Notes: generated from the sequence alone by a model not told the origin. A stretch of DNA of 54,303 nucleotides from a virus (IMGVR_UViG_3300032313_000663:1-54303), one strand, 5' to 3'. Numbered from the stretch's first letter, positions 29,498-53,590 are shown. A program made the numbers and translations.

Positions 29498-29532
29498 TTT
29501 CTCACCATTTTTCATCAATCCAAGGAGGTTTT

Positions 29533-31131: not shown

Positions 31132-31139
31132 TCGCGATC

Positions 31140-31265
31140 TCTCTATATAGGGAGGTTTCATTTTTTAAATCGAAAATATGAGGTATGGGGTATTACACGT
31201 CAAAGTGCGGAATGTAACCCCAAACCAGATAAGGATTTGTGTCTTATATAGTGCAATACCCCGAG
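31140..31265. other. AT-rich putative replication origin
   Basis: CTATATAGGG, GGGGTATTAC (31187-31196), GTAACCCC and TGCAATACCCC (31252-31262), directly after the primase gene. Confidence 0.6.
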
Positions 31266-31306
31266 CGAATCATGTCGGGGTTGCGGAGGTATGACTTACC
31301 AAGGAG

Positions 31307-32983
31307 ATGGAGAAGATGGGCAAGGTAGAGAGGCATATTGGCGGTCCGGGCACCGGAAAGACCCGGCTGATCCTCGATCGGCTCAGCGAGACGAAGCGAG
31401 AGTTTAGTTTGTCGATCGACGAGATAGCTCTTTGCACATTCACCCGTGCGGGCAGGCAGGAGCTATCGGAGCGGGCTGCGGCGGAGTGGGGCTGCGACCC
31501 GGAGTCGCTGACCAAGCATGGGTGGTTCCGGACCGCCCACTCGATCTCTCACCGTCAGTGCCACGTCGAGGAGGGGCAGCTTCTCCAAGGATCGGAAGGG
31601 GCCGAGTGGATTGGCGAAGTCGTCGGAGGGAAGGTCGCCACTCGGTACGACGCTCGAAGCCGTGAGGTCAGCTTCGTGTCTGGCGAGAGCGACAACACTC
31701 TGACCCGCGCCCTCGCCGCGTGGGACTTGGCACGAGCCAACATGACCAGCCTGAAGGCAGTCCTGCGACGCTGGGCTGCGGCAGGAGAACACGTGCCAGA
31801 CTCGCACGCAGTCGCGAGGTACATCGAGAAGTACGAAACAGCCAAGCGGAGGCAGGGTCGGCTCGACTACACCGACATCATTGCGAAGTTTGCAGGGATC
31901 AGGTTCACCATCGACGGCCCGGAGGAAACCCTGCCCGAGGGCGAAGTCCCGGCTGGCATAAAGGCTCTGGCGATCGACGAGGCTCAGGACTCGTCGGTGC
32001 TGGTCGATCGCGTCTGCCGCCGTCTTGCTGAGAGTCCGTCGATCGAGCGAGTCTTCCTGAGCGGTGACGCGTACCAGAGCATCTACTCATTCAACGGCTC
32101 TGACTATCGGCTCTTCCTGAACTGGGAGGCGGAGGAGTTTATCATGCCACGCTCTTACCGATGCCCGCCTGTCGTGATGGAGCTTGGCGAGCGTTGTATC
32201 CGCCGTATGCGTCACGGCTACCGCGATAGGCGGATTCAGCCTGCGGAACACACTGGGCGTGTCAGGCGAGTCTCTCAGGCACGGCAGGCGATCGATGCCA
32301 TAAAGCCAGACGAGTCTGTGCTGATCCTTGGCCGATGCGGATTCGCACTGAGCGAGTACGAAGACATCCTCAAGAGCAAGCACGTTCCGTACACGTGGAT
32401 CGACAGAGTCGGCAGTGCCTCGGAAATGTCTGGATACAGTTGCTTGTGGTCTCTCCAGCATGGCAAGCCCGTCCACCACGACGACTGGGCCAACGCGATC
32501 GCGATGATCCCTGCGGAAGACGTCAGGCTCGGCCAGTTGCTTGTTCGTGGCGAAAAGGCAGCGTGGAAGAAGGGGCTCCGTTCCAACGTGGACGTGATCC
32601 TTCCGACCGACGAGCACCTGACTCTCGCCGGAGCGACGGAGGCGTTCGCTGGCCTGATCCGCAACGGTAGCTGGCACGAGTACCTCGACAAGTCTCACTC
32701 GAAGAAGGCAAGCCGCTGGGTCGAGGCTGCGAAGAGGTTTGGCCCGGACACTGCCTGCAATCCGAAGGTCCGCCTGTCAACGATCCACAGTGCCAAAGGG
32801 TGCGAGGGGGACACGGTGATTCTCTCGACGATCTCAAGCCCTGCCGTGGAGCGAGGTCGTCAGGAGGTCGACGACATCCACGACGAGGAGTGCCGCGTGA
32901 ACTACGTGGCCGTGACTCGTGCCCGGAAAGACTTGTGGATCGTCAACGACGGCGGCAAGTTTGCGATGGAGATTCCCGCATGA
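31307..32983 (+). CDS. UvrD-like SF1 helicase
   Basis: GGPGTGKT, TFTR, IDEAQD, GDAYQSIY, SYRCP, STIHSAKG-E, YVAVTRAR. Confidence 0.92.
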   Translation: MEKMGKVERHIGGPGTGKTRLILDRLSETKREFSLSIDEIALCTFTRAGRQELSERAAAEWGCDPESLTKHGWFRTAHSISHRQCHVEEGQLLQGSEGAEWIGEVVGGKVATRYDARSREVSFVSGESDNTLTRALAAWDLARANMTSLKAVLRRWAAAGEHVPDSHAVARYIEKYETAKRRQGRLDYTDIIAKFAGIRFTIDGPEETLPEGEVPAGIKALAIDEAQDSSVLVDRVCRRLAESPSIERVFLSGDAYQSIYSFNGSDYRLFLNWEAEEFIMPRSYRCPPVVMELGERCIRRMRHGYRDRRIQPAEHTGRVRRVSQARQAIDAIKPDESVLILGRCGFALSEYEDILKSKHVPYTWIDRVGSASEMSGYSCLWSLQHGKPVHHDDWANAIAMIPAEDVRLGQLLVRGEKAAWKKGLRSNVDVILPTDEHLTLAGATEAFAGLIRNGSWHEYLDKSHSKKASRWVEAAKRFGPDTACNPKVRLSTIHSAKGCEGDTVILSTISSPAVERGRQEVDDIHDEECRVNYVAVTRARKDLWIVNDGGKFAMEIPA

Positions 32984-33447
32984 ACCAGCTTTTCGACACG
33001 TCTCCGATCGAGGACGAGGACGGCAAAAAGAAGAAGAAGGGCAAGAAGAAGCAGCCCGAGCCGCAGCACGTCACGACCTACCGGCGAGAGCCTGACGTTG
33101 AGTTGGCCCAGCCCGGCTACCTCGCCAGCATCGAGGGTCACTACTCGTGCGACCGCTGCGGGCTGACGACTCTCGACCTGATTGACGTCCGTGGCACGAA
33201 GTGGCTCGTAATGTGCGGCTGGTGGTGTCTGCACTCGTGGCTCGTGGACCCGATCCCCGGCCTGCTCGACAAAGAGGATCGCAAGCAAGCCCCGGACGCG
33301 TTTGTCATGCGAGACGGTCTCTTTAGCGGCAAGACTTTCGACGAGATCGCTGCTGCCGGTGGCCGGGCCTACATCGAGTCTCTGCCTGTCGTGTCGAAGA
33401 GACAGGCTGTCAAAGACGCCGCGAAAAAATGGCTTGACAGTCATTGA
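32980..33447 (+). CDS. Hypothetical zinc-binding protein
   Basis: CDRC...CGWWC; C-terminal GLFSGKTFDEI. Confidence 0.7.
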   Translation: MNQLFDTSPIEDEDGKKKKKGKKKQPEPQHVTTYRREPDVELAQPGYLASIEGHYSCDRCGLTTLDLIDVRGTKWLVMCGWWCLHSWLVDPIPGLLDKEDRKQAPDAFVMRDGLFSGKTFDEIAAAGGRAYIESLPVVSKRQAVKDAAKKWLDSH

Positions 33448-33461
33448 ATAGTACGGATACT
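33434..33461 (+). promoter_or_regulatory. Possible promoter with TAGTACGGA half-site
   Basis: TTGACA, TAGTACGGA at 33449-33457, weak -10. Confidence 0.5.
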
Positions 33462-33493
33462 CACCCCCACACCGCATCTCAAAAGGAGTTGAT

Positions 33494-33961
33494 ATGCCCA
33501 AGCCTCTGCCCGGCGTCGTTGACGCTCTTCAGGCCTCTCTCAGGAATCACTGGACGCAAATCGCGGCCTACGAGACTCAGGCGTCTCACTTCGCACGATG
33601 GGGATATTCCCAGCTTGGCGTGGCGTTTCAGGACTACGCGGTTGAGGAGCGTGACCACGCGAAGAAGCTGATCGACCGTCTGGAGTTCTTCGACTCCCAG
33701 CCCACCTACGAGTTCGAGCAGCCGCTGTGGCCCCGTCATGACTTCGAGGGAATCCTCGAAGTGAACTACGTGTTCGAGACCACGACGGCCAACACAGAAC
33801 GGTCTGGATACCTTCTCTGCGTTGAACTGGGTGACGCCGAGACTGCGGCGATCTTCGCCGACCTCCTGAAGGGCAGCGAAGACGGCATGGCAGAGATCGA
33901 GGCCACGCGTCTCGTGATCGACCAGATTGGCCTCGACAACTATCTGGCGGATCGCACGTGA
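33494..33961 (+). CDS. bfr: Bacterioferritin-like protein (divergent)
   Basis: WGY...EERDHA..LIDR...GD...IGLDNYL pattern, 155 aa. Confidence 0.85.
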   Translation: MPKPLPGVVDALQASLRNHWTQIAAYETQASHFARWGYSQLGVAFQDYAVEERDHAKKLIDRLEFFDSQPTYEFEQPLWPRHDFEGILEVNYVFETTTANTERSGYLLCVELGDAETAAIFADLLKGSEDGMAEIEATRLVIDQIGLDNYLADRT

Positions 33962-34110
33962 AGCGACTTTGCAACCGCTGCAACGCGGAGAAGACGTCCA
34001 ACGCACCGTGCGAGAAGTGCGGGTGCCAAGAGTTCCGAATCATCGGACCACCATGTCCGTCAGGTGCTGCATATCACGGCACCGTTGGTAGCCAAGCCGG
34101 TGTTGGCTGA
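33958..34110 (+). CDS. 50-aa zinc-ribbon protein (not in ORF track)
   Basis: GTGA overlap; CNRC...CEKCGCQEFR. Confidence 0.6.
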   Translation: MKRLCNRCNAEKTSNAPCEKCGCQEFRIIGPPCPSGAAYHGTVGSQAGVG

Positions 34111-34192
34111 TAACCCCGGCTGTCGAGGCGAGTGTTTAGCTCTTTTCCGCTTGTGACTCGATCGTCTGCCTCACGTTACGAGGCCCATACAC

Positions 34193-34441
34193 ATGATGGA
34201 CGACCTAGCAGAAATCAACCCTGAAGCCCTGCTCGCCGACGGCCTCGAAAAGGCTTTCGTTGGCTACACCGTCAATCACCACCACGCTCACGTCGCTGTG
34301 TATGACGTGCAGAGGTGCGTCGACATTCTCGTCGAGCGTGATGGCATGACTCACGAGGGTGCTGAAGAGTACCTGTCGTTTAACACCCTTGGTTGTTACG
34401 TGGGGCCGAATGGGCCGATTTACGTGAGGATGACCGCATGA
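34193..34441 (+). CDS. Conserved phage protein
   Basis: DGLEKAFVG...AVYD...DGMT...EEYLSFNTLG-YVG. Confidence 0.8.
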   Translation: MMDDLAEINPEALLADGLEKAFVGYTVNHHHAHVAVYDVQRCVDILVERDGMTHEGAEEYLSFNTLGCYVGPNGPIYVRMTA

Positions 34442-35232
34442 AGTCAGACAAGCGAAAAAGAGCGGGCATTTCGTCGAAGACTCGTTGGGATGTTTTTCGC
34501 AGGGATGGTTTTAAGTGCATCTACTGCGGCTCCTGCGAGGAGCTTGTTATAGACCACGTAGACCCATTTGCCCGTGGAGGCATTGACTCACAAGACAATT
34601 TTGCGACGGCCTGTAGGAGGTGCAACTCAGGGAAGCGAGACAAAGTTCTTGTGCCTCCGCTTGCTGTAAATCAGGAATTTTTTGACGAGCAAAGGGTCGT
34701 GAGTTCTGGTGTTTCGTATAGAAACCACCTGCACAAAGACTGGGGCCAAGCCCTTCAGCACGCAGATTGTTTTTCTGCGGTCGAATACATCGCAGACAAA
34801 AAACTTTGCCAAGGGGCAGATTTCAGTATGTGTTCGATGCTCACAGGACAAAGGCGGTACATGCGGGTTGTTATCGCCAGCATGTGCGACGAGCGTTCGC
34901 CTGAGCAGCAGAACAAAATACGCGAAGCGGTTTCTAGGGCGTTGAACAGAGATAAAACAATCCTTCTGATTGGGTCTCCGTTTTACTTCTACGCGATGGT
35001 AATCGATTTGTATTACCCGGAGTCGCCATGCGTTGGTCAACTAACAGACAGTCTGACGCTGTCAGATCGGACTATAGATCGTTCTGATCTCGAAGAGTGG
35101 CTCTCTCTCACCGAGGAAGATTTTGTGGAGCCTGCTGACGCTTTTTACCTCAAAGCCAGAAGTTTCCCTTGGAGGAAACGCATGGACGAGATTTACGAGG
35201 GTTCTTGTGCAATACGAAATAAAAGCAATTGA
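34438..35232 (+). CDS. HNH endonuclease domain protein
   Basis: RDGFKCIYCG...DHVDP..GG...N...ACRRCNSGK. Confidence 0.85.
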   Translation: MKSDKRKRAGISSKTRWDVFRRDGFKCIYCGSCEELVIDHVDPFARGGIDSQDNFATACRRCNSGKRDKVLVPPLAVNQEFFDEQRVVSSGVSYRNHLHKDWGQALQHADCFSAVEYIADKKLCQGADFSMCSMLTGQRRYMRVVIASMCDERSPEQQNKIREAVSRALNRDKTILLIGSPFYFYAMVIDLYYPESPCVGQLTDSLTLSDRTIDRSDLEEWLSLTEEDFVEPADAFYLKARSFPWRKRMDEIYEGSCAIRNKSN

Positions 35233-35767
35233 GACAAAGTACAAGGGCATCTTGTTTCGTTCGCGCCTTGAAGCCAAGTGGGCGTGCTTCTTCGACCTTC
35301 TGGGGTGGAAGTGGAGGTATGAGCCAGCAGACTTCAACGGATGGATTCCTGACTTCGCCATTTATGGAGCAGATTGCGTCTATGTCGAGGTGAAGCCTGT
35401 AATCGATTTCCCTACTGACGTTGCTGAGAAGATAGACGCCAGCGGTTGCAGGAATGAAGTTTTGATTCTTGGTGAGCTTGGACCGGAACTCGGTAGTGAA
35501 GACTATTGGTTTCGTTTGGGCTGGCTGAGAGAAGTTAATCATTACGATGAGGCTTCGGCTCCTGATTTTTTATGGGATGAAGCTGTGCTGGGGAGGTGGG
35601 AGGCAGGAAAGGGTTCTATTGGATTTTGTCATTCCGGCATTGCATTTTCGGACAGAATTTCTGGCGGGTACGACGGGGGATGCTTCGGCGAATTGCCGCT
35701 GCATTGGGATGAGATAGATGAGTTGTGGGCTGCTGCCTGTAACTCGACTCGCTGGAAGCCTCGCTAA
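35207..35767 (+). CDS. PD-(D/E)XK nuclease-like protein
   Basis: FRSRLEAKWA-FFD...YEP...IPDF...YVEVK. Confidence 0.8.
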   Translation: MQYEIKAIETKYKGILFRSRLEAKWACFFDLLGWKWRYEPADFNGWIPDFAIYGADCVYVEVKPVIDFPTDVAEKIDASGCRNEVLILGELGPELGSEDYWFRLGWLREVNHYDEASAPDFLWDEAVLGRWEAGKGSIGFCHSGIAFSDRISGGYDGGCFGELPLHWDEIDELWAAACNSTRWKPR

Positions 35768-35782
35768 AGGCAAGGAAGCCTC

Positions 35783-36523
35783 ATGTCCGTAAAATCCCTC
35801 GCCAAAAAACACATCGCATACACCGACCTCCTCAACGAGTTCGAGTCCCCGTTTTCGTCGAACAAGGTCACCGGCCACTCCCTGAATTTCCCGATCATCA
35901 ACAGTTGCACGCCGACGATCGTCTGTGCCGAGACGTGCTACTTCGCGAAGGGGCCATCCACTTGGACGGCTTCTCTCAAGAAGCAGCACCGCCTCATGAA
36001 CTCGATCAAAGCCTCGCCGACGCACATGGCTGTGATTATCGCCGACTGGACTCGTCGACTGAAGCTCGACTTCGTTCGCTGGAACGGCGGCGGAGACTTG
36101 TTCGCCGAGAGCGTCGACTGCATCAACCGGGCCGCGCCGCTCATGCCGACGATCCCGCAGTGGATCGTGAGTAGGAAGCCCAAGCTGGCGGCGGCGATCG
36201 AGCCTGCCTCGAACGTCTACGTGCATTTCTCGGTCGACAAGACGTCATGGGATCGTCTCGAAGAGATGCAGAGCCTTGCCCCGGCCGGGCTGCAATGGTT
36301 TTGGTCTTACCAGTGCGATAAGGGCGAGACTCCGCCAGACCCGATGGTCGCGCCGGTGATCTTCCGCGACGGCTACGATCCAAAAGGCGGGGAATTGTAC
36401 GGAAACGACTGCCCGCTCAATGCAAACGAAGATATCGCAGGCGTCTGCGGCAAATGCCAGCGTTGCTTTAACGGCTGGGCAATTGAGGGGGCAAAGGAAT
36501 GCCTGTCTCAGACACGGCGTTAG
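35783..36523 (+). CDS. GP88-like protein (Cys cluster, radical-SAM-like)
   Basis: CTPTIVCAETCYFAKG, VRWNGGGD, C-terminal CP...CGKCQRC. Confidence 0.7.
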   Translation: MSVKSLAKKHIAYTDLLNEFESPFSSNKVTGHSLNFPIINSCTPTIVCAETCYFAKGPSTWTASLKKQHRLMNSIKASPTHMAVIIADWTRRLKLDFVRWNGGGDLFAESVDCINRAAPLMPTIPQWIVSRKPKLAAAIEPASNVYVHFSVDKTSWDRLEEMQSLAPAGLQWFWSYQCDKGETPPDPMVAPVIFRDGYDPKGGELYGNDCPLNANEDIAGVCGKCQRCFNGWAIEGAKECLSQTRR

Positions 36524-36885
36524 GAGAGGTCGGTCGGCTGCTCGCGTCGGCGGAGATGCTTTTGCACGGCATATCTGCAACTCGACCAGAGTGCGACGTC
36601 GGCGTCGACATCGTGGCTGTGTTTGGTCAGAAAGCGTGTCGCGTTCAGGTGAAGTCAGTGCGAGATCACAAGCCATCACCGCGAACTAAAGCACACAAGT
36701 TCAAGATTCGGCGGTCGAGGACTGGTGGCGTCTATGCAAACCATGAGATCGACGCGTTTGTGTTTGTCAGCATCGCAAGTAAGTCGTTTTGGGTGGTCCC
36801 AGTGAGCGACCTGAATCTTTCGGCACACGCCGTTTTTCATCACCCCGGATCGCGATGGCACAACGCGTGGCACTTACTGAAATGA
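36499..36885 (+). CDS. PD-(D/E)XK endonuclease
   Basis: GEVG...VDIV...RVQVKS...IDAFVFV...FWVVP. Confidence 0.75.
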   Translation: MPVSDTALGEVGRLLASAEMLLHGISATRPECDVGVDIVAVFGQKACRVQVKSVRDHKPSPRTKAHKFKIRRSRTGGVYANHEIDAFVFVSIASKSFWVVPVSDLNLSAHAVFHHPGSRWHNAWHLLK

Positions 36886-37169
36886 CACTCGAAACCACCA
36901 TCACGAGGTCGATTGTGACGCTCGCGAAAGCGAAGGGGTGGTGGACGTTCAAGATTGCTGGCGGGCCGATGCAGATGGCTGGAGTTCCAGACTTGTTGAC
37001 AGTGAAGCATGGACGAGCGGTGTTCCTCGAAGTGAAGCAGCCGGGCAAGAAGTCTCGCCCGCTTCAAGTGCAGAGGATGAAAGAGATACGCGAGATCGGC
37101 GGAGCCGTCGCGGAAGTGGTCACGAGCAGGGCTGAGGCAGAAAGGATTCTCGATGCGAACGATGTATGA
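36882..37169 (+). CDS. VRR-NUC domain nuclease
   Basis: AGVPDL...FLEVKQPG...LQ. Confidence 0.88.
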   Translation: MTLETTITRSIVTLAKAKGWWTFKIAGGPMQMAGVPDLLTVKHGRAVFLEVKQPGKKSRPLQVQRMKEIREIGGAVAEVVTSRAEAERILDANDV

Positions 37170-37596
37170 GACAGAGGCCGATCTAAGCAACGAGGCTGCG
37201 GTCCGCAGCTACGTGGCTCAGACCTTCTCTGCCGAAGTCAACAAGGTGCCGCTCAGCTACGGCGTCGACTCGATGGTCTCCGTGGACGGCAAGCTCGTGG
37301 CGTGGCTGGAGATCAAGTGCAGGCCCGGCATGACGTGGGGGCAGTATCCGGACGTCATGATTTCCGTCCTGAAGCTGCGGGCAGCGGCTGGGCTGAAGGC
37401 CTCGACCGGCATCGACACGCACTTCGTCGTGGCCGACTCTTGCGGCGTCATCAAGAGTGCGAACCTCTGCAAGACTTCGCCTGATTGGATCAAGTACGGC
37501 GGCAGGACCGCCCAGACACGAGACCCGGCCGACATCGAGCCCGTCTGTCACATACCTCTCGAACAGTTCACGGAGGGCACGCCGTGGGGTCAATAA
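37153..37596 (+). CDS. PD-(D/E)XK-like phage protein
   Basis: YET..DL.NE...YGVD...WLEIKCR...RDPADIEP. Confidence 0.7.
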   Translation: MRTMYETEADLSNEAAVRSYVAQTFSAEVNKVPLSYGVDSMVSVDGKLVAWLEIKCRPGMTWGQYPDVMISVLKLRAAAGLKASTGIDTHFVVADSCGVIKSANLCKTSPDWIKYGGRTAQTRDPADIEPVCHIPLEQFTEGTPWGQ

Positions 37597-37709
37597 CAAC
37601 ACGTGAGACTTGGCCTCCAGAGCCGCCGAATAAGCCACCCAAACACTGGGAATGGCAGATCGTCGACGGCGTCAAAAAACTCGTCCCGATCAAGAAAAAA
37701 ACCCCTTGA
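37584..37709 (+). CDS. 41-aa hypothetical protein
   Basis: GGAGG RBS before GTG. Confidence 0.5.
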   Translation: MGSITTRETWPPEPPNKPPKHWEWQIVDGVKKLVPIKKKTP

Positions 37710-37733
37710 CGATAGTACGGAAGCGGTTACCTT
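37706..37733 (+). promoter_or_regulatory. Possible promoter with TAGTACGGA half-site
   Basis: TTGACG, TAGTACGGA at 37713-37721, TACCTT directly before ATG. Confidence 0.45.
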
Positions 37734-38138: not shown

Positions 38139-38154
38139 AGCCAAGGAGGGCTAT

Positions 38155-38535: not shown

Positions 38536-38653
38536 ACACCGTCCCCTCCGGTGGTCCCGCCGTCGCTTCATCGGGTAGGTGGAGCGGCGGTGGGCCACTC
38601 TGGAACATCTTGCGGAGCATTCATGATTTTCGACTTTTTCAGGAGGTTTTTCG

Positions 38654-41519: not shown

Positions 41520-41547
41520 TCGCTGTCGGTTGCTAGGCTGAAAACGT

Positions 41548-44553: not shown

Positions 44554-44554
44554 C

Positions 44555-44844: not shown

Positions 44845-44845
44845 A

Positions 44846-45196: not shown

Positions 45197-45197
45197 C

Positions 45198-47324
45198 ATG
45201 AGCGACGTCATCGTCAACATCACGCCTCCTGCTCCGATCGAGCTTCTGTACTCGCAGGGCGGTGCTGTGGGTCCGCAGGGTCAGACGGGAAGCGTGGGAC
45301 CAGTCGGCCCTACGAACAGACTCGTCGTGGGCACGGTCACTTCTGGTACGGCAGCTTCCGCGACCATCAGTGCCCAGACTGTGGCGAACGGAACAGCGAC
45401 TCAGACTCTGAATCTCGTCCTCCCCCAAGGCGAGACCGGAAGTCAGGGCATTCAGGGAGTCGTGGGACCAGCCGGTCCTGTCAATGTCCTGTCTGTGGGC
45501 AGTGTTGAGACGACTTCGGCGACTACCGCGTCGATCTCGATAACCGGGACGGCACCGTCGCAAGTCATCTCTTTTGTAGTGCCTCGCGGGCCGCAGGGAA
45601 TTCAGGGCGAAGTCGGTCCGTTCATGAGCGTCCAAGTGGGCGGAGTGACGACTGGCGCATCCGGCACAAACGCGAAGGTCGAGACGGTCACAGCCGGTGG
45701 CACGGTGACCTTGAACTTCACCATTCCTCGCGGTGCGGACGCCACTGCAAACCTCGCCGACGAGACTCCTCAGCCACTTGGAATAGCGAGCGTTGGTTCG
45801 GCCCTAAAAGCCGCACGTGCTGACCACGTGCATTCAGTCCCAGCCATTTCATTCGGTTCGTTGACTGGGGTGCCACTCACGTTCAGCCCATCCGCCCACA
45901 CTCACGCCGTAAGCGACGTCGCGAACTTGCAGGCGGCACTGGACTCGAAGCAGCCTGCCGGGAGCTACGCCACGCTCGTAAACGGAGCCGTACCGTCGTC
46001 AATGTTACCGGGCTTTGTCGACGACATTATCGAGTACGCGACTCTCAGTGCCTTCCCGGCAACGAATGATGTTGGCAAGATTTACACGGCGATCGATACG
46101 CGGAAAATCTACCGATGGTCAGGGACTGGCTACGTTGAGATTTCTCCATCCCCCGGCACGACGACTGACGTGCCTGAAGGGACGAATCTCTACCACACGA
46201 CTGCACGTGCCGCAGCAGCAGCACCAGTTCAGAGCGTTTCGGGCCGCACGGGCTCGATCTCGATCACGAAAAGCGACGTGGGTCTCGACAACGTCCCAAA
46301 CACAGACGCAACGGCGAGGGCAAATCACACTGGCACCCAGACGGCATCGACGATCAGCGACTTCGCCGCCGAGGCTGCGAAGTACGGCCCCGTCACCAGC
46401 GTGTCGGGCCGCACGGGTGTCATCACGCTCGCCCAGCTTGGCAGTTCCGGCACCGCGTCAGCATCGACGTTCCTGCGAGGGGATGGGCAGTGGACTGCGG
46501 CGGGTGGCACTAACATCGTCGAGTCGGCCACGGCGGCGGGCTTCCCGGCGACGGGGGCCAGCAGCACTCTGTATATCGCCACTGATGCCAACCGCGTTTT
46601 CAGATTTGATGCGTCTGGCGTATATGTCGAGGTCGGCCCCGGTGCAGTTGCTGCGGTCGGCGGTGGTGGCGCGGGCGGCACGACAGACCCGCTCTGGTCG
46701 AGCGTTCGTCTGCTCTTGCCGCTGGACGCCAACACCTACGACTACCGCTCGGGCCAAGGCAGCACTGTTACGGCTTTCGGCAGTGCAGCGATTGCCAGCA
46801 GTTCGCCAAAGTTCGGCGCAGGTTGTTTGTTTCTCGACGGCAACTCCGACTATTTGCAAGTCGTGGACGGGTTCAACTACATCGTCCCGGGCACAGGCGA
46901 CTTCACTATTGAGGCGTGGGCGCGGCCAGCATTTTTGTCGGCAGAAGCGAACTATGTGTTCGAGGCGCGAGAAACTCAAGTCGCAGGGTACGGCGTCTAC
47001 CTCAATAGCAGCAGCACCGTAGTGGTTGCGTCGTCGTCTGCAACTTCGCTGATAACGGGGGCAGCCCTGTCTACAGGCCAATGGCACCACGTTGCCCTAT
47101 GCCGCGCGAGCGGGACGCTGCGGCTGTTTATCAACGGCACCGTGGCGGGCACGCCCGTTGCGAATACAACAAACTTCGCATCGAACAGACTGCTGATCGG
47201 TCGCTCGCTGTCTGACAGTACGCCGTTCTGGTTCGACGGCAACATTGACGACGTGCGCTACACGTCGGCAGCACGGTATACGAGCAACTTCTCAGTGGCG
47301 ACTGCGGCATTTCCGACAAGCTGA
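45198..47324 (+). CDS. Fibre protein with collagen-like repeats and C-terminal LamG/ConA-like domain
   Basis: GPQG repeats, HTH(A) fibre motifs, VxSVSGRTG twice, GDFTIEAW...WHHVA...IDDVR. Confidence 0.85.
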   Translation: MSDVIVNITPPAPIELLYSQGGAVGPQGQTGSVGPVGPTNRLVVGTVTSGTAASATISAQTVANGTATQTLNLVLPQGETGSQGIQGVVGPAGPVNVLSVGSVETTSATTASISITGTAPSQVISFVVPRGPQGIQGEVGPFMSVQVGGVTTGASGTNAKVETVTAGGTVTLNFTIPRGADATANLADETPQPLGIASVGSALKAARADHVHSVPAISFGSLTGVPLTFSPSAHTHAVSDVANLQAALDSKQPAGSYATLVNGAVPSSMLPGFVDDIIEYATLSAFPATNDVGKIYTAIDTRKIYRWSGTGYVEISPSPGTTTDVPEGTNLYHTTARAAAAAPVQSVSGRTGSISITKSDVGLDNVPNTDATARANHTGTQTASTISDFAAEAAKYGPVTSVSGRTGVITLAQLGSSGTASASTFLRGDGQWTAAGGTNIVESATAAGFPATGASSTLYIATDANRVFRFDASGVYVEVGPGAVAAVGGGGAGGTTDPLWSSVRLLLPLDANTYDYRSGQGSTVTAFGSAAIASSSPKFGAGCLFLDGNSDYLQVVDGFNYIVPGTGDFTIEAWARPAFLSAEANYVFEARETQVAGYGVYLNSSSTVVVASSSATSLITGAALSTGQWHHVALCRASGTLRLFINGTVAGTPVANTTNFASNRLLIGRSLSDSTPFWFDGNIDDVRYTSAARYTSNFSVATAAFPTS

Positions 47325-47342
47325 CACTCAGGGCACTCCACC

Positions 47343-48293
47343 ATGCCATTTTCTTTCCCAGCATCACCAGCACTCAACGCGACCTCAACCCAAAACGGGC
47401 GAGAGTACCGCTACGCCGGTAACAACACATGGGAACTCGTCGCCGCGAGCGGTGGCGGCGGCGGCTCGGGCAGCATCGTCACCGCAGCGACAGTCGCAGG
47501 ATTCCCCGCGACGGGTGCATCGGGCACGCTGTACCTCGCTACGGACACGGCTCGCGCCTACATCTGGGCGGGTGCCTACGTCGAGGCTGGTGTGAGTGGC
47601 GGCGGCACCGACACTGAGTTGCGTGCGTTGTTCACGCCCGGCGCGCCGACGAGCGTGACTCCCACGGCGGGCAACGCACAGGTGTCGCTCGCGTGGACTG
47701 CGCCAACCGTTCTTTCTGTCACTCCAATAACGGACTACACCGTTCAGTTCAGCAGCAACAGCGGCTCAACGTGGACGACGTTCACTCGGTCGGCGTCCAC
47801 TGCGACGAGCGCAACCGTCACGGGGCTGACCAACGGCACGGCGTATGTGTTCCGCGTGTCGGCGGTGAATGGCGTTGGAACAGGAAGCTACTCGGCGGCG
47901 AGCAGTGCCGTTACGCCTGCGGCTGCATCGGCCTCGCTGGCTGTCGCTACGGCTGGAAGCGGCTCTGGAAGTTGGTCGGGGGCTGGAACTCAATCCTCGC
48001 CGTTTGTTCGATCAGCCGTTGGCTGGTCTGGATCAGGCAACTGGGTTGCCGACCCAGTATTTACTGCCAGCGGTAGCGGCTCTGTGCGTATTTCGTGGGC
48101 GAGTCGCGCGCAGGCTGGAGACGCAGACCCGGCACTGTATGTGCAGAAAAACAACACCACAGTCCAGACTCTGGCGTGGTCTAGCAGCGGTGCCTCAATC
48201 ACTCCGGTGAGCGTGGTGGCTGGCGATACAGTGCGACTCGTGACTGAGAACGTAGGCCAACAACTGACAACAGTATCCGCGTGGATTCAGTAA
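47343..48293 (+). CDS. Virion appendage protein with fibronectin type III domain
   Basis: VSLAWTAP...DYTVQFS...VTGLTNGTAYVFRVSAVNGVG. Confidence 0.85.
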   Translation: MPFSFPASPALNATSTQNGREYRYAGNNTWELVAASGGGGGSGSIVTAATVAGFPATGASGTLYLATDTARAYIWAGAYVEAGVSGGGTDTELRALFTPGAPTSVTPTAGNAQVSLAWTAPTVLSVTPITDYTVQFSSNSGSTWTTFTRSASTATSATVTGLTNGTAYVFRVSAVNGVGTGSYSAASSAVTPAAASASLAVATAGSGSGSWSGAGTQSSPFVRSAVGWSGSGNWVADPVFTASGSGSVRISWASRAQAGDADPALYVQKNNTTVQTLAWSSSGASITPVSVVAGDTVRLVTENVGQQLTTVSAWIQ

Positions 48294-48307
48294 GTAGGAG
48301 ATAGCAC

Positions 48308-49237
48308 ATGCCCTTAAGCTTTCCCAGTAGCCCTAGCGTGGGCCAACAATCGACACAGAACGGCCGCACCTACTCGTGGACGGGCTATGCGTGGGAACTC
48401 GTCGCCGCGAGCGGTGGCGGCTCTGGCCTGTCATGGTCAGCCGTGCCAGCCTCCGCGACGGCAAGCGGCACGGCGGGGCAGATAGCGTATGACGGCGACA
48501 ACGGGTTTTTCTACGTTGCGACGGCTACGAATACTTGGAAGCGTGCGGCGATATCAACGTGGACGCTTGATCCGCATTGGCAAAACGTCTCGCTACTACT
48601 GAACGGCGACGGCAACCTCACAGATCTCTCCACCAATAACACATCAATTACAGCGTATGGCAACGTCGCAGCGACAGGGTCGGCGAAGTATGGCAGCGGC
48701 TCAATGACGTTTGACGGCAGCGGCGATTACCTTGCAATGACAGGGCCGCAGTTTGCGTTTGGCACGGCGGACTTCACTATGGAGGCGTGGTTGTTTGTAG
48801 ACAGCCACAACAACGGGTGGCGGACTATTATGGGGGCTTCGACCGATCCGCCCTCAAACGTTGTCGCACCACGGCTTATTCTCTCTGCTGCGTCCGGTGG
48901 CGAGGTAACCAACGGTCTTAAGCTAGACGTGTGGGACGGGTCAACAGGCACGGCGATCAGGGACTCTGTAGCGTTCCCAACGGGGGAGTGGGTCCACATT
49001 GCTCTTGTCCGACAGTCTGGCACGGCAAGGCTTTACAGAGGCGGCGTGCAGGTCGGCAGCACATCAATGACGAGGCAGCTTGCCCGTGAGCAGTTTTTCA
49101 TAGGCAGAGGCTACGACAACGTAGATGGAGAGTACTTCGCGGGGAGAATCGACGACCTGCGAATCACCAAGGGCATTTGCCGCTATCCCGATGGCACCAC
49201 ATTCACGCCAAGCACAACGGCATTTCCTAATGCGTGA
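48308..49237 (+). CDS. Virion appendage protein with LamG/ConA-like domain
   Basis: VSLLL...FDGSGDYL...DFTMEAW...WVHIA...IDDLRITKG. Confidence 0.85.
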   Translation: MPLSFPSSPSVGQQSTQNGRTYSWTGYAWELVAASGGGSGLSWSAVPASATASGTAGQIAYDGDNGFFYVATATNTWKRAAISTWTLDPHWQNVSLLLNGDGNLTDLSTNNTSITAYGNVAATGSAKYGSGSMTFDGSGDYLAMTGPQFAFGTADFTMEAWLFVDSHNNGWRTIMGASTDPPSNVVAPRLILSAASGGEVTNGLKLDVWDGSTGTAIRDSVAFPTGEWVHIALVRQSGTARLYRGGVQVGSTSMTRQLAREQFFIGRGYDNVDGEYFAGRIDDLRITKGICRYPDGTTFTPSTTAFPNA

Positions 49238-49288
49238 CGCGAAGAACCTCGCGTGTGAGATCGGGTACGCGATTGAAGGAGTGACGCG

Positions 49289-49615
49289 ATGAGCAGCACA
49301 TACAACCAGTTACCGGGCACGATGAATTTGGCGTTCCGTCGCTCAAATGACTTCGCCACACTCATCGACTTCGACGGCACGACACTTGTCGGTTACACCG
49401 TCACGGCGAGCGTAAAAAGCCTCGTCACCGGAGCGACCGTGGTGCCGTTCACGACGAGCATCACCGACGCCTCGGCGGGACAGGTCAACATTGCTCTGAC
49501 CGACACGCAGACCGCCGCTCTCGCGGCTGGCACCTACGGCTGGCAGCTTGACTGGGTCGCTCCCGGCAGCGTGCAGCGGACGGCTCTCAGTGGCACCGTG
49601 GAGGTCTACGCATGA
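49289..49615 (+). CDS. Putative virion adaptor (beta-rich)
   Basis: LPGTMNLAFRRSNDF...QTAAL...RTALSG. Confidence 0.65.
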   Translation: MSSTYNQLPGTMNLAFRRSNDFATLIDFDGTTLVGYTVTASVKSLVTGATVVPFTTSITDASAGQVNIALTDTQTAALAAGTYGWQLDWVAPGSVQRTALSGTVEVYA

Positions 49616-49899
49616 CACAGATCACAGCGAGCGTCTCGGCCCAGCCGATTACGGCCAGCGTCAACGCCTCGGGGAGCATCTCCGCGAGCGTGGGCTCGTC
49701 AGTCGTCGAGGCATCGGCAGGCGGCGGCATCGGGCCGCAGGGTCCGCAGGGCGTGATCGGCCCTCCCGGCAACGCACTTTCTGCGGCGAGCGACGTGCAG
49801 TTGAGCGGGGTCGCCGAAGGCGACGTGCTGCGGTACTCGAACAGCAAGTGGCGAAACTACCCCGAAGGCGACATCGTAATCGACGGGCAGAATTTTTAA
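49612..49899 (+). CDS. Short collagen-like fibre protein
   Basis: GPQGPQGVIGPPG; SDVQL...GDVLRY. Confidence 0.7.
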   Translation: MTQITASVSAQPITASVNASGSISASVGSSVVEASAGGGIGPQGPQGVIGPPGNALSAASDVQLSGVAEGDVLRYSNSKWRNYPEGDIVIDGQNF

Positions 49900-49908
49900 G
49901 GAGCAATC

Positions 49909-50616
49909 ATGGCGAATCGTCTTAGGCTGAAGCGTAGAGTCTCAGGCAATGCGGGGTCGCCCGCGACACTCTTGAACGGCGAGGTTGCCTACAACGAGGT
50001 CTCGGATCAGCTTTGGTACGGCAAGGGCTTGGGGCAGGATGGCAACGCCACCAGCGTGATCTGCATCGGCGGCGAAGGCACATACGCCACGAAGAGCCAT
50101 GTCGCCTCGGCGGTCGCTGCGGTTGACGTTTCCTCGCAGCTTGCCAACTACCTGACCACGGCGAATGCGGCGACGACCTACCTGACGATCTCGTCGGCGA
50201 GCAGCACCTACCTCTCGCAGTCGAGTGCGAGCAGCACATATGCGCCTCTGGCGTCTCCAGCACTGACCGGCTCGCCAACCGCCCCGAATCAGACCGCTGG
50301 CGACTCTTCGACGAAGATCGCGAACACCTCGTTCGTCATGACGGCTGTGGCGAATCTGGTGGCGAGTGCCCCAGAGGCACTCAACACACTGGCAGAACTC
50401 GCGACCGCTTTGGGTTCAGACGCCTCGTTCTCCACGACGATCAGCAACAGCATCGGCGGCAAGCTCGCCAAGGCCAGCAACCTTTCTGATCTCACTGACG
50501 CGACCACGGCCCGCACGAACCTCGGCCTCGGCACGATGGCGACTCAGGCGTCGAGCAACGTGAACATCACTGGTGGCAGCATCGACAATATCACGATCGA
50601 CTCAGGAACCTTTTGA
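49909..50616 (+). CDS. Fibre protein with Mtd_N-like N-terminus
   Basis: LRLKRR...L-NGEVAYN; SPALTGSPTAP; APEALNTLAELA; NLSDL...ARTNLGLG. Confidence 0.75.
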   Translation: MANRLRLKRRVSGNAGSPATLLNGEVAYNEVSDQLWYGKGLGQDGNATSVICIGGEGTYATKSHVASAVAAVDVSSQLANYLTTANAATTYLTISSASSTYLSQSSASSTYAPLASPALTGSPTAPNQTAGDSSTKIANTSFVMTAVANLVASAPEALNTLAELATALGSDASFSTTISNSIGGKLAKASNLSDLTDATTARTNLGLGTMATQASSNVNITGGSIDNITIDSGTF

Positions 50617-50618
50617 TC

Positions 50619-50954
50619 GTGGCAAACGTCGTCCGCAACCCGTACAGCAACACGGCTGGCAATGTGCCCAGTTCGCTGGGGAACGGCGTCCTCGCCGTGA
50701 ATCAAGCTGACGGCAGGCTGTTCTACCGCAATGGTGCCGGGTCTGTGACGACGTTCTCGTCGATCGCGTCGTTCGCGACCACAGGGTCGTTCCCGGCAGT
50801 CGGTTTGGCGAATTTGCTGTACCTCGCGTCCGATAGCTCTCGCGCCTATCAGTTCGTGGGCGGGGTATACATAGAGGTCGGCGTGTCTGGTGGCGGCAGT
50901 AGCGGCGGCACAGAAACAGACTCACTTCATCCTTTCCTTCTGATGGGAGGCTAA
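50619..50954 (+). CDS. Short fibre/adaptor protein
   Basis: Mtd_N-like start plus FPAVG module; ends HPFLLMGG. Confidence 0.7.
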   Translation: MANVVRNPYSNTAGNVPSSLGNGVLAVNQADGRLFYRNGAGSVTTFSSIASFATTGSFPAVGLANLLYLASDSSRAYQFVGGVYIEVGVSGGGSSGGTETDSLHPFLLMGG

Positions 50955-50955
50955 T

Positions 50956-51285
50956 GTGCCACAGGCTCACAAAGTTCTTGGGCAAAGCAACCCAACTGCG
51001 ACGACGCTGACAACGCTCTACACAGTGGCGTCTTCCACTAACGTCATTGTGTCAACGATCTCGATTTGCAACCAAGCGGCGGCGTCAGCGACTTACAGGA
51101 TTGCAATTCGACCGGCTGGCGCAACGGCGACGGCAGTTCATTACCTCGTCTTTGATTCTGTGATCCCGGCTAACGACACAATCACACTGACGCTTGGCTT
51201 GACGCTAGCGGCAACCGATGTAATTAGCGTCTACGCAAGTTCTGCCACGGTATCGTTCCATGCCTACGGCGTAGAGATCACATGA
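50956..51285 (+). CDS. Conserved virion-associated small protein
   Basis: KVLGQSNP...LYTV...ICNQ...FHAYGVEI. Confidence 0.75.
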   Translation: MPQAHKVLGQSNPTATTLTTLYTVASSTNVIVSTISICNQAAASATYRIAIRPAGATATAVHYLVFDSVIPANDTITLTLGLTLAATDVISVYASSATVSFHAYGVEIT

Positions 51286-52124
51286 GCCGCAGACTAACAA
51301 GCTCTACATCACTGCGAGGTGCTGCCCTCTCGCCGTTGACGTGGCCTGCGAGGGTTCTTGTTCAGTATTTGATCGCTGGCGGTGGCGGCAGCGGCGGAGC
51401 GGGGCCGCGTGCTGCCGCTGGAGGTGCTGGGGGTGTGTTGACAGGGATATTTCCGGCTACTCCCGGCGTCAGCTACTCTTTCGTTATTGGCGGTGGCGGA
51501 TCACTGGCGTTTGCGCATGGTTCCGGCAATGCAACGCCGGGAACTGCTGGCACGGCGTCTACGGCATTTGGCTTAACTGCATTAGGGGGAGGTCTGGGTG
51601 CTGGCGGCGACGGCTCCATCTCCGGTGGCTTTGGCGCGAGCGGTGGCGGCGCGTGGGCGAGCGGTGCCGCAGGCATAGGATCAGTCGCGCAGGGATTTCG
51701 GGGCGGGTTCGGGGCCAATAGTGGCGTGTACGGCACAGGCGGCGGCGGCGGAGCAGGCGGAGCGGGCGGAAGTGGCACATCATCCGCGAGCGGCAATGGC
51801 GGTGCCGGAATCAATAGCACCATCACAGGCAGTTCAGTCGGCTACGGCGGAGGCGGCAGCGGCGCAAACTTCTCGTCGGCAACCGCTGGGTCTGCATCGG
51901 CGGGCGGCGGCTCAGGACGCAACACTTCGCCCAGCAATCAATCTGCTGCGCAAGGCACTGCGAACCGAGGCGGCGGTGGCGGCAGTGGAGGCAGTGGAGG
52001 ATCGGGCGTGGTCATCCTGCGCAGCACATCGCCAGCGATTGAGACTACCGGATCGCCAACAGTCAGCAACGCTGGCACAGACTATGTCTACACGTTCACG
52101 GGCAGCGGGAGCATCACGTTTTAA
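51282..52124 (+). CDS. Glycine-rich fibre/receptor-binding protein
   Basis: YLIAGGGG...GGSGVVILR...YTFTGSGSITF. Confidence 0.8.
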   Translation: MSRRLTSSTSLRGAALSPLTWPARVLVQYLIAGGGGSGGAGPRAAAGGAGGVLTGIFPATPGVSYSFVIGGGGSLAFAHGSGNATPGTAGTASTAFGLTALGGGLGAGGDGSISGGFGASGGGAWASGAAGIGSVAQGFRGGFGANSGVYGTGGGGGAGGAGGSGTSSASGNGGAGINSTITGSSVGYGGGGSGANFSSATAGSASAGGGSGRNTSPSNQSAAQGTANRGGGGGSGGSGGSGVVILRSTSPAIETTGSPTVSNAGTDYVYTFTGSGSITF

Positions 52125-52417
52125 TGGCACACTTCGCTGAACTTGACGAAAACAACGTCGTCGCGTCTGTAGCCGTGGTATCCAACACGGTGCTTCTCGT
52201 TGACGGCGTTGAGGTTGAGTCGAAAGGCGTTGACCTCATGGAGTCGATCACCGGGCACAGGCGTTGGAAGCAAACGTCATACAGCGGAAGGTTAAGGTGC
52301 AACTACGCAGGCATCGGCATGACCTACCGCGAAGACATTGACGCCTTCGTGCCGCCATGCCCCGGCGAGGGCTGGACGCTGGACGAGTCGACAGGCGAGT
52401 GGGTGCAGCCGCAGTAA
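52124..52417 (+). CDS. Conserved fibre-associated protein
   Basis: MAHFAELDENN...WKQTSY...R.NYAGIG...DAF. Confidence 0.8.
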   Translation: MAHFAELDENNVVASVAVVSNTVLLVDGVEVESKGVDLMESITGHRRWKQTSYSGRLRCNYAGIGMTYREDIDAFVPPCPGEGWTLDESTGEWVQPQ

Positions 52418-52468
52418 TGCTATTTGCGTCAGACGCGGTGCGTGGCAGAACACTCTAGGAGCAAATAC

Positions 52469-52612
52469 ATGCCATTCTTCAGCATCCCAGCCACGCTCTC
52501 CGGTGCTCCGTATGTCGAGCGGACGCACCCGATGTTGATTCCGCTCGCGGCGGCTCTCGGTCTGTCTGAGGCTCAGGTCGATCAGGCGTTTGTCGAGGCG
52601 GCGAGCATTTGA
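52469..52612 (+). pseudogene. Probable fusion remnant of two fibre-region genes
   Basis: AGGAG RBS; MPFFSIPA head joined to APYVERTHPML...VDQAF tail. Confidence 0.45.
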
Positions 52613-52722
52613 GCAAAATCCTAGCCGCCATAGCGATTGCCATAGCCATAGTCGCTCAAGCTCTCATGTTCGCTGCTGAGGCTATCGGAGACATGAGCGA
52701 TGAGTGGAACTCCGATCTCTAA
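52609..52722 (+). CDS. 37-aa hydrophobic peptide (not in ORF track)
   Basis: TTGA overlap; ILAAIAIAIAIVAQALMFAA. Confidence 0.45.
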   Translation: MSKILAAIAIAIAIVAQALMFAAEAIGDMSDEWNSDL

Positions 52723-52822
52723 GGAGCAACTCGCAACTCGTGGAGTGTGCTGTGGCATGAGATGCTTGAACTGCCCATACATACCTAAGCACCAAGGAGG
52801 CTCTCGTGTTCTCAATTCTTAG
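52700..52822 (+). CDS. 40-aa DUF5522-like Cys-rich protein (not in ORF track)
   Basis: RGVCCGMRCLNCPY; GGAG RBS. Confidence 0.7.
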   Translation: MSGTPISKEQLATRGVCCGMRCLNCPYIPKHQGGSRVLNS

Positions 52823-53051
52823 CTGGCTGATCTATGGAGTGATTGTGGGTGGCATTGCGAGGGCCATCTACAAGGGTGACACTCCTCCGGGCTGGATTCC
52901 CACCATTGCCACAGGGGTGGCAGGCTCTGTTTTGGGTGGCATGATCCACTCCATGATCTCAGGGGGCAGACAAGACTCTGCCGGGATCGTTTTTGGAGTG
53001 ATTGGAGGCATTCTGGCCTGCTATCTCTACTCGAAGTGGCAGAATGCCTGA
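52806..53051 (+). CDS. GlsB/YeaQ/YmgE (transglycosylase-associated) membrane protein
   Basis: WLIYGVIVGGIARAI...GVAGSVLGG...GVIGG; AAGGAGG RBS. Confidence 0.85.
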   Translation: MFSILSWLIYGVIVGGIARAIYKGDTPPGWIPTIATGVAGSVLGGMIHSMISGGRQDSAGIVFGVIGGILACYLYSKWQNA

Positions 53052-53325
53052 GCGATTTGGCTTCTTCAAGCCCAAGAAGCCCCCTATCAGGAAGAAAGGC
53101 CCAAGCTTCTCTCAGAGGTATGGGCCAGAATGGGAAGCTATCAGACTTCAAGTCTTAGTGAGAGACAATTGGCAATGCAGGCATTGTGGGAGAGTTTGTG
53201 GAGATAGGTGGGAAGCACAAGTTGACCACATTGTGCCACTTAGGCAATCTGAGAATCACTCAGAAGAGAATCTCCAGACTCTGTGCATCAGATGCCATCT
53301 CAAGAAGACTCAGCAAGGCCTCTAG
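53044..53325 (+). CDS. HNH endonuclease (terminase-associated type)
   Basis: RDNWQCRHC...VDHIVP...NLQTLCIRCH..KT; upstream of terS. Confidence 0.9.
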   Translation: MPERFGFFKPKKPPIRKKGPSFSQRYGPEWEAIRLQVLVRDNWQCRHCGRVCGDRWEAQVDHIVPLRQSENHSEENLQTLCIRCHLKKTQQGL

Positions 53326-53399
53326 CTCTCGATTTAAGACAGTTCTGAATAGTCTGGGTATGGGGACACCCTTTTCGAGAAGTGGGCTTTGTAGCTCAT

Positions 53400-53590
53400 T
53401 TAATGCAATACCCCAATACCCCATTTTTCTTCTATATAGGGCCAATTTGAAAAAATCTCCAGAAATGGGGTTTTTGGGGTATTGGGGTTTTTACCTTTGT
53501 TTTTCTCGAAGAAAACACAGAAAAAAGTAATACCCCAATTCGCGGAATCGGGGTATGAGGGGTTTTGGTTTTGGTCCCTATATAGAAAAG
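53400..53590. repeat. AT-rich inverted/iteron repeat region upstream of terS
   Basis: Several AATACCCC/GGGGTATT copies; TTCTATATAGGGCCAA (53430-53445) inverted as TTGGTCCCTATATAGAA (53571-53587). Confidence 0.75.

Follow-up and report, generated by a model that had tools for sequence, protein, structure and literature searches.

Replication origins built from iterons form a known class, and their duplication within one genome is known from the Bacillus phage SPP1. The two SPP1 origins, oriL and oriR, are described as carrying the same direct repeats together with an AT-rich unwinding element, both being bound by gp38 (PMC6316719), and oriR, which is located in an intergenic stretch of the late region, has been proposed to set off the change to concatemer synthesis (PMC6316719; PMC3485210). 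The origins of the Staphylococcus aureus pathogenicity islands (SaPIs) are described as consisting of 6–12 short (5–6 nt) iterons, some of them in the opposite orientation, which flank an AT-rich centre immediately downstream of rep; these iterons are read by the C-terminal winged helix of the initiator, their specificity differs between elements, and the primase and Rep are sometimes fused (PMC9371898). Here, we analyzed the contig IMGVR_UViG_3300032313_000663 of an uncultured freshwater phage (54,303 nt in its whole length, hereafter the window), in which two intergenic spacers, site A between the genes for a primase-polymerase (Prim-Pol) and a helicase, and site B upstream of the small terminase gene terS, carry copies of one repeat element. 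We put at about even the chance that sites A and B are twin iteron-type origins or initiator-binding sites, with a layout like that of a SaPI origin and a duplication like that of SPP1 oriL/oriR. What is particular to this case is that the likely initiator is a Prim-Pol lacking a helicase body, that 7-mers specific to the lineage are framed by two conserved palindromes, and that the second copy abuts the cohesive-end site (cos).

All three words by which the initial annotation had paired the two spacers were present where it had placed them, and they are nearly confined to these spacers. CTATATAGGG occurs at 31143 and 53432 on the plus strand and at 53576 on the minus strand, which are its only three exact copies in the window, against an expectation of 0.37 copies with at most one mismatch. 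TGCAATACCCC (31252 and 53404) and GGGGTATTAC (31187, with its reverse complement at 53527) each have two copies in the window, one per site, and the three occurrences of TCTATATAGGG all lie inside A or B. The core GGGGTAT was found 10 times in the 54,303 bp, compared to 1.17 expected, and none of 100 shuffles reached this number; 7 of the 10 copies lie inside the two spacers. Of the 29 matches to the degenerate form G[GA]GGT[AT]T in the window, 13 fall within the 470 bp of A and B, whereas composition-matched shuffles of A and B gave 0.23 on average and never more than 3 in 5000. The spacers were also described as AT-rich islands 22 kb apart, and they have the lowest GC content of the window, 0.36 for A and 0.35 for B in 100-bp windows, compared to ~0.60 overall. 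The sharing of words between the two spacers is far beyond chance, and the words are nearly private to these spacers rather than common throughout the genome.

The likeness extends to the whole element. By sequence comparison, A and B are paralogous, collinear copies, in the same orientation, of one cis element of ~150–190 bp, which combines a pair of CTATATAGG palindromes with a GCGGAAT and a TAAGGrTTTrG box, an AT-rich tract, and 5–8 copies of G(G/A)GGT(A/T)T. The elements are arranged in the order of palindrome box 1 (C(T/C)ATATAGG), the A- or T-rich tract, the tandem repeats, the GCGGAAT-type box, TAAGGrTTTrG, and palindrome box 2, with an inverted repeat copy immediately 3′ of palindrome 2; A adds two repeats ahead of the ribosome-binding site of the helicase gene. 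The whole-element collinearity, the position of cos between B and terS, and two further boxes, GCGGAAT at 31207 and 53542 and a degenerate second palindrome, CTTATATAGTG, at 31243, go beyond the words reported initially. Site A has five strict and two degenerate repeat copies, with the AT tract on one side, whereas site B has eight copies around its centre, three direct ones on the left and one inverted and two direct ones on the right. The distance between the palindromes is 145 bp in B, the larger copy, compared to ~100 bp in A. A mobile element of the miniature inverted-repeat type, with 11-bp terminal inverted repeats, was considered and ruled out, since both copies are syntenic in relatives at 55% protein identity.

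The phage is a member of an uncultured freshwater clade of cos phages with genomes of ~95 kb. No close cultured relatives were found: its Prim-Pol gave one weak match among 50,697 phage records, and its small terminase (TerS) is <38% identical to any cultured phage TerS in the phage-record search. Relatives were therefore compared as found through TerS, the helicase (22 viral loci), or Prim-Pol (40 metagenome loci); the helicase relatives were found with a two-sequence alignment, the single-protein query of the viral contigs having matched nothing. They include the genomes G003 (97 kb, 99% complete), G006 (76 kb), and G008 (93 kb, with a terminal overlap, 100% complete). Among the Logan contigs, those of related strains end at ~52.6–52.8 kb, and one run alone spans site B.

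Relatives hold the element at the same two places and in the same orientation, and the motifs are shared between the two loci within them. A profile built from nine copies of site A detected, across the 320 kb of the window (G000), G003, G006, and G008, sites A and B only, with nothing else at E<10. In G003, the exact CTATATAGG occurs only beside the helicase homologue and upstream of terS, and a one-mismatch palindrome lies at 68.6 kb. Repeats occupy the interval from Prim-Pol to the helicase in every one of the 20 upstream regions read of the 22 helicase-found viral loci, and in eight of the nine closest of the 40 Prim-Pol-found metagenome loci, the ninth (L087) ending too early. The spacer between the two genes was measured in 19 loci and is 152–184 nt long in the 14 that belong to the ~95-kb clade. 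In relatives with 36% helicase identity, the palindrome is swapped for another direct repeat (e.g., GTGTCCGCATAAT), whereas TAAGGGTTTAG is kept. At site B, the TerS-found relatives retain the palindromes and the central box but carry a different short repeat. The positional conservation is stronger for A, the Prim-Pol-side copy, than for B.

The short repeat changes between lineages, and it changes at both sites together. The numbers of 8-mers shared between A and B were 21, 23, 20, and 9 within the four contigs, compared to 0–10 between genomes, indicating that A and B change together. The window has GGGGTAT as its repeat, G006 has AGATTCC, and both G003 and G008 have AAGTC(T); thus, in all four contigs that carry both sites, the lineage-specific repeat is identical at A and B and different between lineages. 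Among the TerS-found relatives, the site B repeats are AAGTCC (L008), GGAATC/AGATTCC (L007), AAGTTCC (L009), and AAGTC (G003 and L011); in the helicase- and Prim-Pol-found relatives, the site A repeats include the classes AGATTCC, AAGTCT, AAGTTCA, AAGTCC, GGTTCCC, AAGTTAC, and GGTTCAC. As judged from these sequences, it is well, although indirectly, supported that one specificity system reads both sites, in agreement with the initial proposal that a single protein binds both. In G006, A and B (50780–50815 and 75255–75290) also share a near-identical run of ~30 nt outside the repeats, GGGCAGTTT(T/A)TTTTTACAACTCCTGT, suggesting that the copies occasionally undergo gene conversion. The lineages in which the 7-nt repeat has changed at both sites (GGGGTAT, AGATTCC, AAGTCC, GGTTCCC, AAGTTAC, AAGTTCA, and AAGTCT) provide material for studying the co-specificity of initiator and site.

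The leading candidate for the protein that binds both sites is the C-terminal part of Prim-Pol. In this protein, the primase-polymerase domain at the N terminus is accompanied by a helix bundle, by a domain resembling the N-terminal domain (NTD) of SaPI Rep, and by a winged-helix-like tail; the AlphaFold2 models gave pLDDT values of 86.7 for the full protein and 87.5 for the tail alone. The front part matched the pRN1 ORF904, NrS-1, and RepB′ primases in Foldseek, which on the tail returned spurious Hsp70 rows alone. With VIA-align, the tail matched the N-terminal domain of SaPIbov1 Rep (8tch_B) with Z 6.4 over 94 residues and SCCmec Cch with Z 5.2, and the last 120 residues matched many winged-helix DNA-binding domains with Z 4–5. 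Pfam gave the Prim-Pol family alone, and the fold searches gave no ATPase body. In addition, in each of the six close relatives compared, the C-terminal 340 residues have diverged more than any other protein segment of the neighbourhood, with 48–65% identity, compared to 74–94% for the flanking SNF2 and PDDEXK proteins, the open reading frame (ORF) at 28690, the N-terminal domain of Prim-Pol, and the helicase. This fast divergence fits a specificity domain.

Searches of G000, G003, G006, G007, and G008, of which three have a completeness of 96% or more, detected neither a family A nor a family B DNA polymerase, whereas the control genomes matched. A phage without such a polymerase needs an initiator that recruits the host replisome, and Prim-Pol is the only polymerase-type enzyme found. 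We infer the origin identity of A and B from this context together with their architecture. Each element would serve as the docking region for one phage-encoded sequence-specific DNA-binding protein. Site A would be the origin proper, extending from 10 nt after the Prim-Pol stop codon to the helicase ribosome-binding site; the initiator, probably the Rep-NTD-like and winged-helix-like part of Prim-Pol, would bind the 7-nt repeats flanking the AT-rich tract, which would then melt, and Prim-Pol would prime, the neighbouring superfamily 1 (SF1) helicase unwind, and the host polymerase elongate. Site B, 128 nt to the left of the putative cosN, where the packaged chromosome has its right end, would be a second such site; it would act as another origin or, when bound by the initiator, would aid the change to concatemer synthesis in the way proposed for SPP1 oriR. 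Two putative origins, as suggested in the initial annotation, are the best-supported reading in view of the SaPI-like layout behind Prim-Pol, the lack of a match to family A and B polymerases, and the SPP1 precedent.

The comparison with the described systems shows both likenesses and differences. As in SPP1, two distant sites carry the same repeats and an AT-rich tract, one being located in the replication module and the other in the late, packaging region. There is, however, no sequence relation to SPP1; the candidate initiator is a Prim-Pol and not an organiser of the G38P type (no search for a G38P homologue was made), the repeats are 7-mers accompanied by two flanking palindromes and a conserved TAAGGGTTTAG box, and the second copy, known here from sequence, abuts the cos site of a phage that packages by cos, SPP1 being a pac phage. 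As in the Pri-Rep origins of SaPIs and other phage-inducible chromosomal islands (PICIs), site A lies directly downstream of the candidate initiator gene, which site B does not. The arrangement of the repeats and the AT-rich region is similar to that of the SaPI origins but differs from it in detail. Unlike SaPI Rep, Prim-Pol has no superfamily 3 (SF3) helicase body, and a separate UvrD-like SF1 helicase gene follows the spacer, so that the element at most works like the SaPI Rep-ori family and is not a member of it. The duplication 22 kb away and the partly tandem repeats with a 7–9-bp period are further differences. In phage P4, ori and crr likewise carry the same octamer-type repeats at two separated sites that are both bound by the alpha primase-helicase, but alpha carries its own helicase and binding domains, and ori and crr are a few kb apart, compared to the 22 kb here. 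If the twin-origin reading is correct, the locus represents a second, independent two-origin layout of the SPP1 style, in an unrelated uncultured clade and with a primase-polymerase initiator that lacks the helicase body.

Several observations weigh against this reading. In G000, G003, and G008, the cumulative GC skew stays monotonic across both sites and gives no origin signal, and the AT skew is likewise monotonic with no inflection at either site. The cumulative GC skew climbs steadily along the window (G+C ~60%), which fits the majority of the genes being on the plus strand. The repeat period of 7–9 bp is short beside the 17–22 bp of classical iterons. The origin and binding roles are assigned from comparisons of sequence and structure, and the Z scores of the Prim-Pol tail are middling, which according to the tool's own warning may mean just a common arrangement, so that they are a hint only. 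The co-variation with the primase, proposed initially as a check, is not clean, since L086 and L047 share AAGTTCA repeats and yet have tails that are 33–47% identical. Four lineages whose repeats all differ have the same last helix, TVEQERxLKRKILE; the β-hairpin that follows it (residues 522–540) alone differs, with FHH, YRR, YKR, and WKR signatures, and because the repeat classes coincide with clades, this comparison is no independent test. Other fast-diverging or weakly helix-turn-helix-like candidate binders are encoded at 26112–26411, 21014–21307, 1406–2302, and 32980–33447, the last of which may be DNA-binding, as judged from its sequence (Table 1). BLAST of the site A DNA against the distant relatives G009 and G010 found no second copy, which is a weak test for so short an element. 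Finally, the best conserved piece, TAAGGGTTTAG together with TATAG(A/G)G, resembles a promoter of the SP6/K11-type phage RNA polymerases.

This last resemblance leads to the main rival of the origin reading, which we consider possible at roughly half its likelihood, namely, that A and B are regulatory cassettes, either middle/late promoter-operators or antitermination sites of the nut/put kind, whose reader would be a regulator specific to the phage or a phage RNA polymerase that escaped recognition. Such cassettes would turn on two gene blocks, the one from the helicase to HNH and the terminase/structural one, with the lineage-specific repeats as operators like OL/OR of the heteroimmune lambdoid phages. 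Both copies are indeed oriented with the genes and placed ahead of gene blocks, R3R4 lies between palindrome 2 and the helicase ribosome-binding site, and a weak conserved TTTACG-N17-CATACT at 53614–53642, between B and cos, could be activated from B. Near-consensus sigma-70 promoters (TTGACA-N17-TATACT), which are probably early promoters, precede the other operons at ~13550, 17060, 17862, 21345, 24930, and 33440 (promoter regions at ~13550, ~17040–17117, ~17860–17932, ~21340–21414, ~24930–24983, and ~33430–33493). Several of these are followed by a shared leader, GTGAACGACACCTC...CAAAGGAGCTACC, and a hairpin terminator precedes the promoter at 21308. In contrast, no sigma-70 promoter with −35 and −10 elements and a 16–18-nt spacer was found on the plus strand at 30900–31500 or on either strand at 52900–53900, so that A and B lack a coding-strand promoter of this kind although the other promoters of the phage are near consensus. 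The annotation of cos, the likely origin, and the early promoters is of practical use for this phage group.

Candidates for the reader of such cassettes are the weak, sub-cut-off HTH_17 matches in 1406–2302 and 21014–21307 and a 2472-aa ORF without a known family beside the portal gene of G008 (described below). Conversely, no PF00940 RNA polymerase was matched in the five contigs; this absence is soft evidence, since the family was silent in the control genomes too. The spacers fold as RNA better than shuffles (z −2.7 and −2.8), but no Rfam family or tRNA was found in the searches, the run after palindrome 1 is T-rich or A-rich depending on the lineage, which suits a DNA structure better than an RNA signal, and the replacement of the palindrome by a non-palindromic direct repeat in distant relatives argues against an RNA hairpin. 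The presence of only two copies per ~95-kb genome also speaks against a regulatory cassette. An intrinsic terminator at palindrome 1 of A was ruled out as a general role, because relatives carry an A-run in place of the T-run.

The position of B relative to the packaging site was defined from the relatives. A block that is conserved in all TerS relatives and is separate from the repeat element lies between B and terS and contains the putative cosN, CCACACCGGG. The contig of G006 stops at the equivalent of 53712, position 53723 is the first one in L005, L006, and G007, and the break in the circular G008 assembly falls at 53724; the distant L014 likewise begins ~65 nt ahead of its terS. The 10-nt gap between these ends suggests that a cohesive end was lost in library end-repair, i.e., a 3′ overhang, and cosN likely has a 10-nt 3′ overhang, its polarity being deduced from this gap. 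The ends of HK97 are 10-nt 3′ overhangs. The cos module resembles that of HK97, with an HNH gene directly upstream of cos, a TerS of the P27 family, and contig ends that in six records (53712 and 53723/4) fit a 10-nt cohesive end; in HK97, the HNH gene (gp74) is described as lying beside terS/terL across cos (PMC13595911). This likeness concerns the neighbourhood of B and not the repeat element; the distance of B from cos varies, and B is not tied to TerS.

Site B lies 128–310 nt from the right end of the packaged DNA and is separated from terS, from which the HNH gene is 450 bp away, by cosN. In six relatives, the last palindrome and CGTGAGC, a conserved word on the cos side, lie 143, 202, 223, 232, 238, and 563 nt apart. 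TerS is 70–97% identical across all lineages, the differences being scattered, conservative, and unclustered, and it is 83–88% identical between lineages whose repeats are unrelated (GGGGTAT, AAGTCC, AGATTCC, and AAGTTCC). The near-identity of TerS despite unrelated repeats, together with the variable spacing, indicates that B is not a subsite of TerS or cos: B shows neither the fixed position relative to cosN nor the specificity following TerS that characterize cosB or TerS-binding repeats, and its second copy is 22 kb away. In G003 (L010, 2380–2760) and L011, long tandem arrays with a 16-nt unit, CCAGGCCAAGCCCAT(T/G), and a 6-nt unit, CTCATG, are inserted between B and cos.

It is doubtful, although somewhat less so than for the two remaining explanations, that site B acts as an initiator-bound device 130–560 bp upstream of cosN at the last-packaged, first-injected end, where forks stalled or restarted by the bound Prim-Pol initiator, perhaps with looping of the 22 kb between A and B, would turn theta replication into concatemer synthesis at the point where the terminase begins. 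If this were the case, an initiator-bound site B would represent a built-in coupling of replication to packaging in the ~95-kb freshwater cos-phage clade.

Slightly less probable still is another cis role, in which A and B are a dispersed repeat homogenised by gene conversion and serve partition, looping, recombination, or as a decoy on the first-injected end. The near-identical run in G006 points to an exchange between the copies, and the position of cos together with general knowledge of cos siphoviruses places B at the last-packaged and presumably first-injected end. However, no ParA/ParB, recombinase, or integrase was found among the 73 ORFs of the window scanned with Pfam, and all relatives keep the position right after the primase gene.

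The least probable explanation is that the repeats are TerS or HNH sites (cosB- or cosQ-like), with A as a second, internal terminase site coupling replication and packaging, since, although B lies 128 nt from the putative cosN beside the HNH and TerS genes and repeat clusters beside cos are described as the classic TerS sites of lambda (PMC13595911), the constancy of TerS across repeat lineages, the 143–563-nt spacing with the inserted tandem repeats of G003, the far better conserved block around cosN, which is the natural TerS site, and the stronger positional conservation of the Prim-Pol-side copy all argue against it. The link to packaging initiation through TerS that the initial annotation had suggested is thereby not upheld, given also that cosN lies between B and terS.

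Table 1. Coordinates of the repeat elements, the cos region, and the associated genes in the window
Feature	Coordinates	Strand	Remark
Virus contig IMGVR_UViG_3300032313_000663	1–54303		Uncultured freshwater phage; CheckV completeness 55%
Replication module holding site A			Also SNF2 helicase and PDDEXK nuclease (Pfam)
Candidate binder	1406–2302		Weak HTH_17 match below Pfam cut-off
Candidate binder	21014–21307		Weak HTH_17 match below Pfam cut-off
Candidate binder, 99-aa ORF	26112–26411		43% identical to G006
Prim-Pol gene, 553 aa, candidate initiator	29470..31131	+	Pfam PF09250 E 6e-22, residues 33–211; PHROG DNA primase
Site A, 175-bp Prim-Pol/helicase spacer	31132..31306	+	Matches site-A nhmmer profile (9 genomes)
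A palindrome box 1 TCTATATAGGG	31142..31152	+	10 nt after Prim-Pol stop; relatives C(C/T)ATA(TA)GG
A AT-rich tract	31153..31180	.	GC 0.21
A tandem repeats R1R2 (GAGGTAT, GGGGTAT)	31180..31193	+	Relatives: AGATTCC/ACATTCC, AAGTCTACAAGTC or AAGTTCAAAGTTCA
A central GCGGAAT box	31207..31213	+	Aligns with CGGGAGT/GCGGAAT boxes of relatives
A degenerate inverted repeat GGGGTTAC	31214..31221	-	Read from sequence
A GATAAGGATTTG box	31228..31239	+	Most widely conserved piece (TAAGGrTTTAG); survives in relatives at 36% helicase identity
A palindrome box 2, degenerate CTTATATAGTG	31243..31253	+	Sequence comparison
A inverted repeat copy, directly 3′ of palindrome 2	31256..31262	-	Inverted copy likewise in G006, G003, L047, L079
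A repeats R3R4 (GGGGTTG, GAGGTAT)	31275..31292	+	Just upstream of helicase ribosome-binding site
UvrD-like SF1 helicase gene	31307..32983	+	Pfam UvrD-helicase E 1e-22, UvrD_C
Candidate binder, ORF after helicase	32980–33447		Lys-rich GKKKKKGKKK, CxxC...C...C; 64–75% identical in close relatives; no family match
HNH endonuclease gene adjoining cos	53002..53325	+	Pfam HNH E 6e-12
Site B spacer, HNH to cos/terS	53326–53620		
Site B core	53404..53590	+	Second element copy, same orientation as A
B two inverted GGGGTAT copies AATACCCCAATACCCC	53408..53422	-	
B palindrome box 1 TCTATATAGGG	53431..53441	+	
B three direct repeats (GGGGTTT, GGGGTAT, GGGGTTT)	53467..53490	+	
B AT-rich centre, 45 bp	53485..53529	.	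GC 0.31
B inverted copy 53530–53536 (-), GCGGAAT 53542–53548, direct copies 53550 and 53559	53530..53565		Together a 12-pair imperfect dyad
B palindrome box 2 TCTATATAGGGA	53575..53586	-	
Conserved block, ACTCCGGGGGAGT hairpin ... CGTGAGCGGCTGCAAAA ... hairpin	53664..53775	+	Conserved in all TerS relatives (alignment); separate from repeat element
Putative cosN CCACACCGGG	53713–53722		Inside conserved block; flanked by partial dyad CGGCCC...GGGCCG; 54 nt upstream of terS
Small terminase gene terS, P27/Terminase_4 family	53776..54240	+	Pfam PF05119 E 1e-16

Some features of the window and its relatives are noted apart from the two sites. The UvrD-like helicase, which has 558 aa in the window, has ~850 aa in the loci L047, L048, L051, and L053 (helicase match 3001–5511) and in G008 (24972–27536), and the window protein aligns to these in two halves, indicating that an intein or an extra domain is inserted between them. 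Another gene for an HNH endonuclease, at 34393–35232 inside a GC-poor island (34.9–35.3 kb), has, together with its small neighbours, no counterpart in G006, G003, or G008, and looks like an inserted homing endonuclease gene. Just ahead of the HNH gene and cos, a block of fibre-like genes (45198–52124), with two Laminin_G_3 domains, an fn3 domain, and a glycine-rich domain, is far more variable among the relatives than the remaining contig, and is located apart from the main structural module, which begins after terS.

The 2472-aa ORF of G008 (80485–87903; L069 485–7903, minus strand) lies between the portal and prohead protease genes. It gave no match in the Pfam, PDB-sequence, or Atlas searches and hit just a PHROG of unknown function, whereas the other giant ORFs of G008 were assigned by the Pfam, PDB-sequence, PHROG, and Atlas searches to a tape measure protein and an Ig-repeat structural protein.

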